The position numbers and the translations under genes are program-made. A DNA stretch of 32,000 nucleotides from Acaryochloris marina S15 (GTDB lineage: Bacteria > Cyanobacteriota > Cyanobacteriia > Thermosynechococcales > Thermosynechococcaceae). The stretch lies in contig NZ_CP064923.1 in NCBI RefSeq assembly GCF_018336915.1, positions 3,630,001-3,662,000 of the forward strand, read 5' to 3'. Positions 8,546-13,493 of this stretch are shown here, in pieces. Position 1 is the stretch's first letter. Each line of letters begins with the position of its first letter. The notes under the pieces were generated by a model. The model was not told the origin of the DNA, made no database searches, and saw nothing but the letters and a program-made list of their open reading frames with translations.

Positions 8546-8847
8546 CGAAGGATTACTCACGAATTGAACTGATCGATTATTGCCTATTGAGCATAAAATT
8601 ACTCTTCTCAAACATTGAGGTTGTTTGATCTGGGATCAATGGTTCTAAAGTTTAAGGTTGAAATCCTCTGATTTCCGGGTTTCTGAGTCAGAAGTGAGCT
8701 TAAGCACTCCTGGGCGTGACCATCATCATAGTGTCGCTTTTTCGAGCTTGGTAGCGTAATCCTAACGAAAAAGCCAACTATATCTGAGGAATGGGGTATG
8801 ACTCGAATTTTTATCAGTCACAACTGGGGTGATAAAACGATTGCCGA

Positions 8848-8856
8848 CAAAATTGC
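8848..8856. repeat. left target-site duplication CAAAATTGC (10 bp, CAAAATTGCC, if the IS starts at 8858)
   Basis: Identical to 10289-10297, and it directly abuts the IS terminal inverted repeat. Confidence 0.85.
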
Positions 8857-8874
8857 CAGCAATTGTAAATTCAA
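8857..8874. repeat. IS left terminal inverted repeat
   Basis: CAGCAATTGTAAATTCAA, read directly. Confidence 0.9.
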
Positions 8875-8937
8875 AATTTTGGCAAGCTAGGTTGTAGTCG
8901 TTGAGGATGTATTCATACACTTGCAGAGCCCCAGACG

Positions 8938-10270: not shown

Positions 10271-10288
10271 TTGAATTTACAATTGCTG
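10271..10288. repeat. IS right terminal inverted repeat
   Basis: TTGAATTTACAATTGCTG, the reverse complement of 8857-8874. Confidence 0.9.
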
Positions 10289-10297
10289 CAAAATTGC
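10289..10297. repeat. right target-site duplication CAAAATTGC
   Basis: Identical to 8848-8856. Confidence 0.85.
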
Positions 10298-11543
10298 CCA
10301 GGATCTGAAAGGTGCTTGTGATATTTGGTATGACCTCCAACAAACGAGACCAGGGGACGACATCTCTGAGGATGTCAAGCAAGGCATTCAGGCATCAGAT
10401 ATTGTCTTTGTGGTTTGGTCTCAGAATGCTGCCCAATCAAAATGGGTCAATAAAGAGATGAGCCAAGCCATGCTCTTACGGAAAACGATTATTGGAATTT
10501 TGGTGGATGATACGCCTTGGTATTCCTATTTGCAGAATTTGAATATTCCTGCCCAAGATTGGCGCCAAAATTACCAAAATTTATTTATGCGGCTGAATAT
10601 TGTGTTGTTGAGCCAGCAACATCAAGTATTGAAATGTAAGGGGGAGGAGTGGTCCATTCTCAATACGTTACTGACACAGATGCATGATTTGGATGGGGTG
10701 ACCCAGTATCTAAATGCCTATCGCCGGCAAAACAATGTCTCTGGAGATAAGGCCTATTGGATTCAGCGTATTCTAGACGTTTGTAATGAGTCTTATGCTC
10801 AGGGTAAGCAAGTATTAGACCAACTGCAGGGTGGGATGGCTTATGCCCAAGAGCTGGTGGATCGGATTGAGCAATCGTTGCATGACCAATATCAGCTACA
10901 AGAGATTCTGGCAGAAATTGAGGTAAATGAGCATCACTCTCCGATGATTTTGGGAGCCTTGAAGACTAAGGTGAAACATATGTTGGCTTCTTTTGACCCC
11001 TCAGAGCAACCATCGTCTTTAGCCATTAAGACGGTTCCGTCTGAGTTGTCTGTAGAAGCAGAGGAAACACCCGACGAGTCTGGAGGATCGGTCTGGTTAC
11101 AGGTGGGTAAATATGCGGCGATGGGTCTTGCTGCCTATGGTATTTGCAAGATGGTGCAAGGCGCTTCTAATACGGGTGGCAGTGGTGGCGCTTGGGAAGA
11201 TCAAGTTGCCCGATCCTTGAATAGTATGGGGCATTCATCGCCTTTCTAGGGGGGATCTAGTTTGGTTAGAATAATATTCTTTAGCTTTCTATGTTCCTAT
11301 CGTTTATCCTGCTGCTTTCCCAGCTATGAGCGAATAGTATTGACCTCAGCTCCCTTATCTCAATCAGCGAAAGGGGGCTGAACGGTTTAATTTTTTTCGA
11401 GCTGTCTTGCAATTGGGTTGGTAGGGATGGACGAACATAGGATTTGTTTGACAAATCCTTAAGGTTTGATCGTGATTGCTAAGAGTAAAAAAACTAATAC
11501 CTGTAGAATCTTGATTAACCTGTTCTATTTCCGTTCGCGCTAG

Positions 11544-13493
11544 ATGCCTCAGCCCATTAAGGTTTTTATTTCTTATTCCCATCAGGATGAAGGCTTACGC
11601 AATGAATTGGTGGGTCATCTAAGTGGATTAGTACAGTATGAAAAATTGATTGAAATTTGGCATGATCGCAAAATTCCTGCAGGGTCAAATTGGGAACAAA
11701 ACATAGACAGTCATTTGGAAGAAGCTGATATTATTCTTTTCCTGGTGAGTTCAGATTTTATCCGGTCCCCCTATTGCCAAGGCGTTGAAGTAAAACATGC
11801 TCTGAAATGCGATCAAGATAAGACAGTTCGCGCAATTCCCATTTTCGTACGTCCTAGCTTATATGAATCAACTCCCTTGCGGAGTCTTCAAGGATTACCG
11901 AGAAATGCTACCCCCGTTTCCTCGTCAGATCGGCAAACGCCAAGCTCTAGGGATGGTTTATGGCTAGAAGTTGTTCGTGAGATAGGTCAGATTGCCCGAG
12001 AGATTCAGGACCAAATCCTGTCAGCAAAAAGGGCACTCCTACGGGCAGATGGAATAGTAGCTTATGCACAAAAAGCTGAACTGTTTTATCAAGACGGCGA
12101 TATTTCTCCGGGAGAGCAAGTAAATCTCGATTTTATTGCTGAGAACTATCAACTTTCTGCTCTAGATATTGATGAGATATGGGCAAAGATTAAGGCGGAT
12201 TATAGCCAGCAACAACGTGCCCTTGAAACATATCGAGAAACGGTGCGAGCAGAAATAAAACATCGGGGTGGTTTGACTCCAGAGGCTCAATCGGTCCTAG
12301 GTGATTTAAGAGAGAACTTGGGTATTTCTGATGGTTTTGCTGGACAGATTGAACAAGAGGTTCTGGAAGAGCAGCAACGACTTGAAGAACAACGGCAGCG
12401 AGAGCTTGAACAAAGGCGTATAGAAGAGCATCAGCGACGAGAATTCGAACGAAAGCAATTAGAAGAACAACAGCTTGAACAAAAACGCCAGCACGAAGCA
12501 GAACAGCAGGCTGTACAAAAACGAAATATGGAGGAGCAAGTTCGCCAAGAACAAGCAACTAGACTAAAGGAGGAACAGGAGCAAAAACCACGGGAAGGAA
12601 CAACCAATAAGGTTCATGAGTTTGTGTTGGGCAGTGGTGATATACAGCTCCAAACGTTCTCATTTAAAGTGGTCTTGTTGGATGACAAAGGTAAGGTCAA
12701 GCAGCGCACCACTCAATCAGCTCAATTCTTTATGGAAGCATTAGCACCTAGTGTGGACCTAGAAATGGTAGCTATTCCAACTGGATCATATCTGATGGGC
12801 TCTCTGCATAGTGAAGGTTCTAGTCGCGAGCGCCCACAACATCGGGTGCAAGTCCCATCATTTTGTTTGGGTAAGTATCCAGTTACCCAAGCACAGTGGC
12901 ATTCTGTGGCTAAACTTGAGCAAGTCAAGATAAATTTAGATTCTGATCCTGCCCACTTTAAGGGAGACCAAAAACCTATTGAGCAAGTATCTTGGAATGA
13001 AGCAGTTGAATTTTGTGATCGTCTTTCTCGTAAAACAGGGAAAATATACCGTTTGCCCAGCGAAGCAGAGTGGGAATATGCTTGCCGAGCAGGAACAACT
13101 ACTGAGTTTCATTTCGGGAATCAACTCACGCGTAAATACGCAAACTGTGACGTTAAAGAGGTTGCAACTTTAATTGCAAATTTGCTTAGAATATCGACCT
13201 CGGATGTTGGCAGTTTTAACGTTGCAAATAGCTTTGGTCTATTTGATATGCATGGCAATGTTGGGGAATGGTGTCTAGATACCTTTCAAGAAAGCTATAA
13301 AAGTGCTCCAACTAATGGCTCAGCCTGGATTATTAAGAATGATAATCTTTCTCGTCGTCTGAGGCGTGGTGGCTCCTGGGCCTATAATCCGAGGGCTTGC
13401 CGCTCCGCTTCTCGCCGTAGCGATACTCCTGGCTTCCGTGACGACACTGTTGGTTTTCGAGTCGTTTGTTCAGCACCCAGGTCTCTTCAGTAG
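11544..13493 (+). CDS. TIR domain / coiled-coil / FGE-sulfatase (SUMF1-EgtB-like) domain fusion protein
   Basis: 649 aa. The N-terminus is IKVFISYSHQDEGLRNEL..ADIILFLVSSDFIRSPYCQGVEVKHAL..IPIFVRP (TIR). Residues ~270-345 are an EEQQRLEEQRQRELEQRRIEE... coiled coil. The C-terminal ~250 aa carry FGE-sulfatase motifs: GSYLMGS, RPQHRVQVPSFCLGKYPVTQAQW, VSWNEAVEFC, YRLPSEAEWEYACRAGT, FGLFDMHGNVGEWC, RGGSW and GFRVV. Confidence 0.9.
   Translation: MPQPIKVFISYSHQDEGLRNELVGHLSGLVQYEKLIEIWHDRKIPAGSNWEQNIDSHLEEADIILFLVSSDFIRSPYCQGVEVKHALKCDQDKTVRAIPIFVRPSLYESTPLRSLQGLPRNATPVSSSDRQTPSSRDGLWLEVVREIGQIAREIQDQILSAKRALLRADGIVAYAQKAELFYQDGDISPGEQVNLDFIAENYQLSALDIDEIWAKIKADYSQQQRALETYRETVRAEIKHRGGLTPEAQSVLGDLRENLGISDGFAGQIEQEVLEEQQRLEEQRQRELEQRRIEEHQRREFERKQLEEQQLEQKRQHEAEQQAVQKRNMEEQVRQEQATRLKEEQEQKPREGTTNKVHEFVLGSGDIQLQTFSFKVVLLDDKGKVKQRTTQSAQFFMEALAPSVDLEMVAIPTGSYLMGSLHSEGSSRERPQHRVQVPSFCLGKYPVTQAQWHSVAKLEQVKINLDSDPAHFKGDQKPIEQVSWNEAVEFCDRLSRKTGKIYRLPSEAEWEYACRAGTTTEFHFGNQLTRKYANCDVKEVATLIANLLRISTSDVGSFNVANSFGLFDMHGNVGEWCLDTFQESYKSAPTNGSAWIIKNDNLSRRLRRGGSWAYNPRACRSASRRSDTPGFRDDTVGFRVVCSAPRSLQ

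Follow-up and report, generated by a model that had tools for sequence, protein, structure and literature searches.

The stretch of DNA considered here, hereafter called the window, comprises 32,000 nucleotides of the cyanobacterium Acaryochloris marina S15 (contig NZ_CP064923.1, positions 3,630,001 to 3,662,000 of the forward strand); within it lies a strain-specific islet that carries two genes, here named gene 1 and gene 2, each encoding a protein (protein 1 and protein 2) that opens with a TIR domain. The genes are arranged in tandem on the same strand, with gene 2 starting 294 nt after gene 1, and in these coordinates an earlier note on this DNA, prepared from the letters and their open reading frames (ORFs), was exact. 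Gene 1 is split by an insertion sequence (IS); gene 2 joins its TIR domain, through a helical stalk, to a C-terminal FGS domain, a name used for the FGE-sulfatase/C-type-lectin fold. The most informative property of gene 2, missed by the earlier note, is that this domain is a hypervariable lectin domain of the diversity-generating retroelement (DGR) type, and not an enzyme.

8534..13959, no strand: strain-specific insert of 5,426 bp, delimited by blastn against four other Acaryochloris assemblies (L002-L005) and lying between the DUF423/Nudix genes and the RRM-type rbp gene

Gene 2 and its domains

11544..13493, plus strand: gene 2, encoding a TIR-helical stalk-FGS protein of 649 aa (ORF, Pfam, homologues, AlphaFold)
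11562..11891, plus strand: TIR domain, residues 7-116 (Pfam, PADLOC), with the Glu82 codon at 11787-11789
11943..12554, plus strand: helical stalk, residues 134-337, including one 75-residue E/Q/R-rich helix (AlphaFold, predicted local distance difference test (pLDDT) about 90)
12753..13466, plus strand: FGS domain, residues 404-641 (Pfam, structure matches)
13374..13451, plus strand: hypervariable segment resembling the variable region (VR) of a DGR, residues 611-636, SWAYNPRACRSASRRSDTPGFRDDTV (identity among relatives, codon-position skew in Nostoc)

Regarding its domains, protein 2 gave matches in Pfam to TIR_2 (PF13676) at residues 7-116, with E 4.9e-16 and 59.8 bits against a cut-off of 28, and to FGE-sulfatase at residues 407-641, with E 3.1e-53; both had been foreseen, the latter at about residues 400-645. 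The TIR domain also matched the ThsB model of PADLOC (PDLC00420, E 6.1e-34, residues 6-156), and its Glu82, which is invariant in 30 protein-2 homologues, aligned with the matching Glu of Cat1 and RPS4 once a one-residue insertion was allowed. The AlphaFold model has a mean pLDDT of 80.7 and consists of the TIR domain, the helical stalk, a disordered linker, a beta extension and the FGS domain.

Homologues of protein 2 number in the hundreds and are almost all cyanobacterial, many of them with the full TIR-helical-FGS architecture; elsewhere, homologous FGS domains are fused after caspase, CHAT, NACHT, kinase, EAD or RES domains. The stalk module recurs with other partners as well, namely after non-TIR N-termini in loci L010, L054 and L062, and in L072. 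In the last of these, one ORF (1-3162, minus strand) holds six tandem copies of the helical module 'DG-IS--E---L...L-L---EA--I', which corresponds to residues 160-300 of protein 2; the module is mobile, and no Pfam model detects it.

The FGS domain: enzyme or variable sensor

As for the nature of the FGS domain, the closest solved structures found by Foldseek were PvdO (5HHA, TM score 0.77) and the Treponema DGR variable protein TvpA (2Y3C, TM score 0.70, E 2e-15). One explanation is that the domain is a working enzyme, either formylglycine-generating or oxidative in the manner of PvdO and EgtB, to which the TIR domain would be an accessory; the NCBI annotation, 'SUMF1/EgtB/PvdO family nonheme iron enzyme', speaks for it, and the best sequence match is PvdO. 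However, an alignment with the formylglycine-generating enzyme (FGE) of S. coelicolor (2Q17) places Tyr614 at the position of the first Cys in the LCHDSYC motif, and the second is kept as Cys619; this Cys pair is the copper-binding catalytic site of FGE, and with one of its two cysteines gone protein 2 does not have the catalytic pair by which an FGE is recognised. In addition, the NCBIfam scores of protein 2 are far under every equivalog cut-off (146 against 500 for PvdO), and no DinB-type domain is present as in EgtB. The lost Cys and the low scores together indicate that the domain is not an enzyme of the FGE type.

The second line of evidence is the variability of the domain. In an alignment of 30 sequences, the 26 residues between RGGSW and VGFRVV are hypervariable: within three subgroups of relatives, the FGS core is 78-91% identical, against 42-48% for this segment. 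The segment surrounds the former active site, a location incompatible with a conserved active site, and it makes a working enzyme highly improbable. The VR of protein 2 itself has the same scaffold as in its relatives, and its codons are mostly NNY. Judged by sequence and fold, then, what Pfam labels FGE-sulfatase in gene 2 is a predicted hypervariable lectin domain of the DGR type rather than a catalytic one.

The link with DGRs comes from four Nostoc orthologues, which share about 41% full-length identity with protein 2 and occupy a conserved position. A bAvd gene lies immediately 3' of three of the four, and one of these loci, L092, also has an RVT_1 gene, which is the arrangement of a DGR cassette. 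At the DNA level, the variable sites of the four orthologues fall at codon positions 1, 2 and 3 in the numbers 16, 18 and 7 within the VR, versus 16, 15 and 43 in the rest of the domain; the skew of the VR towards positions 1 and 2 has a Fisher p of 2.7e-5. Aligned codons such as GAC/AGC/AGC/AAC point to AAC in the template, which is the signature of adenine-directed mutagenesis. The bAvd and reverse transcriptase (RT) genes were located at 11882-12274 in L091, 11912-13542 in L092 (where the RVT_1 gene encodes 249 aa) and 2122-2490 in L093; between Avd and RT, L092 has a long palindromic insert similar to a miniature inverted-repeat transposable element. On the whole, these loci have the look of a decaying DGR cassette whose target still bears the DGR substitution signature.

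Among 80 FGS loci collected from GTDB genomes, pairs of template repeat (TR) and VR with all or most of their mismatches at template adenines were present in L026, L028, L033, L051, L056 and L079, and in L033 one template (at about 11042) matches three FGS genes. Arrays of three or four FGS genes are common (L021, L023, L027, L055, L057). In L045 (2918-6834), a TIR-FGS gene and the RES-FGS gene that comes after it have 3' VR regions identical at 89 of 110 nt, so that two different NAD-targeting toxin domains are carried on near-identical variable sensors.

With respect to what defines a DGR variable protein, gene 2 has the C-terminal C-type-lectin/FGS fold, and its family has the hypervariable 3' end, where substitutions favour the first two codon positions; a cognate TR, RT and Avd are missing from the 32-kb window, where neither a blastn-short search for a TR of the gene-2 VR gave anything above chance nor a tblastn search with the Nostoc Avd and RT proteins gave any match. 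Gene 2 is thus probably an orphan copy, and its sensor sequence probably frozen, because its vicinity contains neither Avd nor RT nor a template repeat.

Gene 1 and the ISNCY element

8798..8856, plus strand: 5' fragment of gene 1, codons 1-19 and 2 nt, with the first TIR strand IFISH (sequence reading, in-frame restoration)
8857..10288, plus strand: insertion sequence of the ISNCY family, 1,432 bp (inverted repeats, 9-bp target duplication)
10298..11249, plus strand: 3' fragment of gene 1 (Pfam, family alignment, AlphaFold model, hydropathy)
up to about 10565, plus strand: remainder of the gene-1 TIR domain, with the Glu73 codon at 10455-10457
about 10572-10988, plus strand: helical middle domain of gene 1, followed by a disordered linker
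about 11088-11168, plus strand: Gly/Ala-rich, weakly hydrophobic helix of gene 1 (hydropathy)

Gene 1 starts with the ATG at 8798, its protein opens with MTRIFISHNWGDKTIADKIA, and the reading frame breaks after nt 8856, in codon 20. The intervening element has the terminal inverted repeats CAGCAATTGTAAATTCAA and is bordered by a 9-bp target duplication without mismatches, CAAAATTGC, at 8848-8856 and 10289-10297. Its transposase ORF (8938-10266) encodes 442 aa, and the exact protein is named 'ISNCY family transposase' by NCBI, so that transposase family, inverted repeats and target-site duplication all agree with ISNCY; Pfam gave no match for the transposase, as no model there detects the ISNCY enzyme, and NCBIfam gave a weak IS4_2 match only. 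When the IS and one copy of the duplication are deleted in silico, an uninterrupted frame of 336 codons is restored, with its stop at 11249. The identical transposase protein occurs under at least four accessions of the A. marina S15 genome, which makes the IS multi-copy; two further accessions belong to a near-identical genome, and relatives are present in other Acaryochloris strains.

The restored protein 1 matched TIR_2 (PF13676) at residues 4-109, with E 5.4e-21 and 75.8 bits against the cut-off of 28, again as anticipated; it also matched the ThsB_TIR model of Pfam and, weakly, various TIR models of PADLOC, including ThsB. Its Glu73 is invariant across the gene-1 family. When aligned with the PDB chains of PdTIR, AbTir and Cat1, it coincides with the Glu of their W-x-x-x-E motif, which is the catalytic Glu. 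A conserved Glu in both TIR domains, which the earlier note had picked out, is therefore borne out by the alignments with known TIR chains and by both families. Beyond the TIR domain, the C-terminal halves of the two proteins are unrelated, in line with their description as different. In the AlphaFold model of protein 1, the TIR domain is credible (pLDDT 70-86) and the helical domain is of low confidence (about 46-78); Foldseek with this model returned TIR domains only. No recognisable signal-binding domain (SLOG, Macro, SAVED, CAP12) was found in protein 1, the non-TIR part of which is helical and matches nothing. The membrane association suggested earlier for the hydrophobic helix of protein 1 is weak: the Kyte-Doolittle maximum, as a mean over 19 residues, is 1.05, and this value does not give a confident transmembrane segment.

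Concerning its relatives, a word-indexed search of 5.8 billion protein clusters returned a single one besides gene 1 itself, and an exhaustive HMMER search, in which residues 100-336 (the part outside the TIR domain) served as query, yielded 15 representatives from 1.84 billion proteins; the gene-1 family is very rare. Its members have 430-500 aa and combine the TIR domain and the conserved helical domain with a DUF1232-like module, which Pfam recognises as DUF1232 in five of 14 members; a few finish with a Gly/Ala-rich helix and a WEDQ...G-S tail. In this TIR-helical-DUF1232 (YkvA-like) family (P0002, P0123-P0136), no named PADLOC system was matched beyond the TIR domain. Protein 1 does not have the DUF1232-like module that most relatives carry, and so it is already a shortened variant, the IS aside.

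Gene 1 is almost certainly inactive in S15, because the IS still has its target duplication intact, the DUF1232-like module is missing and the IS is multi-copy. The earlier note was correct that an IS had entered gene 1, and it took this to fit a costly or toxic gene; since the element is multi-copy in S15, chance insertion by an expanding IS explains the break, and the claim of toxicity is unsupported.

Co-occurrence of the two families

The earlier note had proposed that the two genes might form a two-component signal/effector pair. In its full form, this explanation holds that gene 2 senses and either makes an NAD-derived signal or seeds a TIR assembly, and that gene 1 executes, perhaps at the membrane, with IS inactivation reflecting its cost. 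The genes are adjacent on one strand, 294 nt apart and with no predicted terminator between them, and the catalytic Glu is intact in both proteins. All ORFs of 15 TIR-FGS loci and two gene-1-family loci were searched with profile hidden Markov models for the middle domain of gene 1 and for the two TIR domains; the former loci comprise seven close homologues (L007-L009, L091-L094) and eight from the genome scan, in which a full-length alignment returned mostly FGS domains with other N-termini (eight of 80 were TIR-FGS), making the sample for co-occurrence a small one. No gene-1-like middle domain was detected at any of the 15 TIR-FGS loci, and outside S15 the two families were together in none of the two gene-1-family contexts and none of the 15 TIR-FGS loci. 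The gene-1 relatives P0002 and P0138 (loci L001 and L006), the two for which a usable context was available, are solitary genes; their neighbourhoods are unrelated and include neither an FGS gene nor another TIR gene.

Any other TIR ORF was found at two of the 15 TIR-FGS loci, L061 and L068. Locus L061 (7899-10909) comes from an uncultured bacterium; there, a TIR-TPR gene runs into the start of the TIR-FGS gene, and the two differ in their C-terminal repeat and sensor domains; this second tandem speaks in favour of a pair. In L068, the TIR-FGS gene is within a cluster that holds a TIR-VMAP-C gene. Against a pair, the families were never together at the other loci examined and the relatives of each gene are single, protein 1 has no recognisable signal-binding domain and a non-TIR part without matches, and its hydrophobic helix is under the usual transmembrane threshold; a two-component system is therefore quite improbable. 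The data favour the alternative that the earlier note had also named: the genes are most likely two stacked single-gene systems and not a cooperating pair. Since they do not co-occur elsewhere, their adjacency in S15 is most simply that of two single-gene modules which entered a variable site between genes, either together or one after the other. That the rare TIR-helical neighbour once co-assembled with the gene-2 protein is much less likely.

The islet and its surroundings

The homology of the window to the four other Acaryochloris assemblies ends at 8533 and restarts at 13960 (blastn), so the insertion between core genes claimed earlier is real; the same site is 159 bp long in L002 and L004, and 1.2 kb long in L003 and L005, where it encodes an unrelated, membrane-protein-like ORF of 110 aa. 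The intergenic site between rbp and DUF423 thus exists in three states across these strains: 159 bp, 1.2 kb with an ORF, and the 5.4-kb TIR islet. The rbp protein of the window has an identical copy encoded in the four other assemblies, and rbp adjoins DUF423-Nudix in all four; DUF423 and Nudix are therefore core genes outside the TIR locus, since they are present beside rbp in strains without the insert. For the same reason, the idea that the flanking Nudix gene processes an ADP-ribose signal was rejected: DUF423-Nudix is kept in all four islet-free strains. In the NCBI records, the TIR proteins of gene 1 and gene 2 are recorded from A. marina S15 only.

The identity to L002 is 91.5% to the left of the islet and 97.8% to its right, and that to L003 is 97.2% and 98.8%; such unequal flanks suggest a recombination breakpoint at the islet site. 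The segment had been described as visibly AT-richer, and the difference is modest: the two TIR genes have a GC content of 44-45%, versus 46-54% in the core genes nearby and 46.2% over the window as a whole. A megablast search of the islet against 72,556 plasmids gave no match, and so offers no evidence that it came from a plasmid; Rfam and tRNA scans of the window found nothing, and hence no tRNA-type integration site at the islet.

The window was also scanned with Pfam, for ORFs of at least 110 aa plus eight smaller ones. As the earlier note had stated, the genes that accompany TIR proteins in named systems are absent from the scanned ORFs: no ThsA, SIR2, Macro or SLOG gene, no cyclase, STING, Argonaute, STAND, MoxR or vWA, and no Avd or RT was detected. 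The small ORFs of the islet and the neighbouring genes gave no defence-relevant match in Pfam or PADLOC. Downstream of gene 2, positions 13494-13959 are 466 bp of islet-specific DNA without a recognisable gene; a 100-aa ORF on the minus strand there has no Pfam or PADLOC match and no similarity to Avd or RT. The same piece contains one further feature.

13523..13545, plus strand: terminator-like hairpin with a T-run 3' of gene 2 (from a consensus scan only; the regional count of such hairpins is not above that of shuffles)

Further along, window positions 19076-20961 are gene-poor and low in GC (down to 36%), with no ORF of at least 110 aa; at the matching place, L003 has a DDE_Tnp_1 transposase, and this looks like a second variable spot.

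Comparison with known systems

Proteins with an effector domain fused to FGS, TIR among them, and their link to DGR hypermutation were described by Kaur et al. in 2020 and 2021 (PMC7159879, PMC8195603) and by Vallota-Eastman et al. in 2020 (PMC7517822), so that 'uncharacterised', the word used for the locus by the earlier note, does not apply to the kind of protein that gene 2 encodes. Kaur et al. (PMC7159879, PMC8195603) proposed FGS as an intracellular, DGR-diversified lectin that senses invaders, with the effectors always N-terminal, and noted that TRs may be located elsewhere in the genome (PMC7159879). Vallota-Eastman et al. (PMC7517822) included TIR in their list of domains at the N-terminus of DGR variable proteins and paralogues in cyanobacteria, and read the kinases, caspases and TIRs fused to CLec as tunable signal-response proteins; Acaryochloris has no occurrence in the text of this survey.

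Like the cyanobacterial DGR variable proteins (PMC7517822, PMC7159879, PMC8195603; Dore 2024, PMC10907252), gene 2 has the FGS domain at its C-terminus and the effector at its N-terminus, its hypervariable segment lies near the C-terminus, and it has orthologues beside bAvd and RT; its family is likewise cyanobacterial in spread, and TIR is a listed N-terminal partner. Unlike them, it has no Avd, RT or TR inside 32 kb, and unlike the described CLec/FGS class it comes without a STAND NTPase, vWA or MoxR, its TIR and FGS domains being joined by a helical stalk only. By its sequence, gene 2 nevertheless fits this computationally predicted class of cyanobacterial CLec/FGS variable proteins with N-terminal effectors. 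The locus is not a new two-gene system; it provides a new member of a predicted class of immune receptors.

With Thoeris, both proteins share a stand-alone TIR of the ThsB type, matched by the PADLOC ThsB model in gene 2 and by the Pfam ThsB_TIR model in gene 1, where it is weaker, and both have extra C-terminal regions; unlike in Thoeris, no ThsA (SIR2/SLOG or Macro/TM) is adjacent, either among the scanned ORFs of the window or beside the homologues examined. To our knowledge, an FGS domain as C-terminal sensor is not a feature of described ThsB proteins. The TIR fold and the catalytic Glu of SARM1, AbTir, TIR-STING, the TIR-APAZ protein of SPARTA and Cat1 are present in proteins 1 and 2. 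By analogy with ligand-gated TIR NADases, protein 2 would unite a sensor and a predicted NADase in one assembly, and activation by induced oligomerisation would be expected; its sensor, however, is a variable lectin fold and not a nucleotide-binding, Argonaute or ARM domain, and its NADase activity is a prediction.

The STAND/Avs receptors with FGE-sulfatase-like sensors (PMC13581612) have the same type of C-terminal sensor and an N-terminal effector; unlike them, gene 2 has a coiled-coil/helical stalk in place of the central NTPase oligomerisation module, and no STAND NTPase domain was found in protein 1 or 2 by Pfam, PADLOC and NCBIfam scans or in the AlphaFold model of protein 2. As for CBASS and Pycsar, no cyclase is among the scanned ORFs, and the SAVED_TIR and CAP12 models gave weak, partial matches to the TIR part only. 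Regarding SPARTA, no Argonaute was found among the same ORFs, and the Foldseek matches cover about 160 residues with root-mean-square deviations of 7-10 Å; such short, high-deviation matches do not show an APAZ-like region in protein 1. Finally, for the ternary systems of VMAP or iSTAND with MoxR and vWA, the scanned ORFs include no MoxR, vWA, VMAP or iSTAND gene; VMAP-C and iSTAND proteins do adjoin other FGS/TIR genes in L068 and L020.

The last finding bears on a further explanation, in which gene 2 is part of a larger dispersed system, either as a ThsB-like protein for a remote ThsA, as a peripheral effector of a MoxR-vWA (VMAP/iSTAND) system, or as the target of a remote DGR. The strong PADLOC ThsB match (E 6e-34), the VMAP-C/iSTAND proteins beside FGS and TIR genes in L068 and L020 and the possible location of TRs elsewhere in the genome (PMC7159879) are in its favour. 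However, no such partners lie within 32 kb, the 5.4-kb insert came without them, and the close homologues are also devoid of local partners, which makes a dispersed system improbable.

Proposed mode of action

Bacterial TIR domains with a catalytic Glu are NAD+-consuming enzymes. Gene 2 would accordingly encode a receptor and effector in one polypeptide, with a variable FGS sensor at the C-terminus, a stalk of about 200 residues and an N-terminal TIR domain with its catalytic Glu intact. In the proposed sequence of events, the FGS domain would bind a ligand, probably a molecule of an invader; binding would cluster the protein, with the stalk mediating or transmitting the clustering; the clustered TIR domains would form an active NAD+-cleaving assembly, and the infected cell would be arrested or killed. 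Ligand sensing, oligomerisation and NADase activity are suggested here on two grounds: established knowledge about TIR enzymes, and the comparative reasoning of Kaur et al.

What was observed directly are the domains, the conserved Glu, the loss of the FGE Cys, the hypervariability, the DGR linkage of the orthologues, the boundaries of the insert and the absence of co-occurrence. The reading as a whole is that the islet is a horizontally acquired 5.4-kb segment, seen in A. marina S15 alone, with two independent single-gene TIR proteins; with the receptor model of gene 2 included, we hold it to be fairly probable. Its strongest form, in which TIR-FGS proteins are minimal, NTPase-free immune receptors where a DGR-diversifiable, antibody-like lectin gates a TIR NADase via a stalk, and in which the S15 copy was horizontally transferred, is 'frozen' and works without its retroelement, is a tentative one.

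It should be noted that several points weigh against this reading. The NADase activity and the defence role of gene 2 are predicted from homology, and the literature searched held no biochemical or phenotypic study of any TIR-FGS protein. The islet is outside any defence island, and PADLOC gave no matches for 10 neighbouring proteins. The tandem of L061 leaves room for a looser theme of a TIR gene next to TIR-FGS, and the two TIR genes of S15, on the same strand and with no predicted terminator in between, may be co-transcribed. Regarding the retroelement, no TR was found beside the Nostoc orthologues (ungapped windows of 120 nt and 45 nt, blastn with word size 7), and the RT of their loci is short or absent; because of this, the cassette may be decaying, and the DGR link of the Nostoc clade may be historical rather than active.

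In addition, several close homologues of gene 2 lie among housekeeping genes, which brings in a different function: gene 2 could be a regulatory or signalling protein, with a variable lectin for a ligand that is either endogenous or environmental and a TIR domain that signals. Vallota-Eastman et al. (PMC7517822) put forward this view of DGR targets in cyanobacteria, and it fits both those homologues and the lack of defence genes around the islet. On the other hand, the restriction of gene 2 to one strain speaks against a role in core regulation; the same sensor also occurs attached to domains of the toxin type (RES, caspase, CHAT, NACHT), and some homologues adjoin ParDE, PIN, methylases, nSTAND3 and patatin. 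Bacterial TIRs with the catalytic Glu are, moreover, enzymes that consume NAD+, and we regard a regulatory role as unlikely.

In conclusion, the presence of two TIR genes side by side is in itself no evidence of a system. The gene-1 family, which combines a TIR with a helical domain and a DUF1232-like module, is rare and unstudied, and its S15 copy is truncated and disrupted. For the TIR-FGS class, 'SUMF1/EgtB/PvdO family nonheme iron enzyme' is a misleading annotation. If the receptor model is true, gene 2 would be among the simplest possible bacterial pattern receptors, in which a stalk connects a variable lectin sensor to a TIR that destroys NAD, and neither an ATPase switch nor a partner gene is involved. 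Intracellular antigen sensing by hypervariable domains of the DGR type has been an in silico prediction since 2020-2021; with their two modules, TIR-FGS proteins would be convenient both for asking whether such domains do act as intracellular antigen sensors and for studying how the signal of ligand binding reaches a TIR domain.

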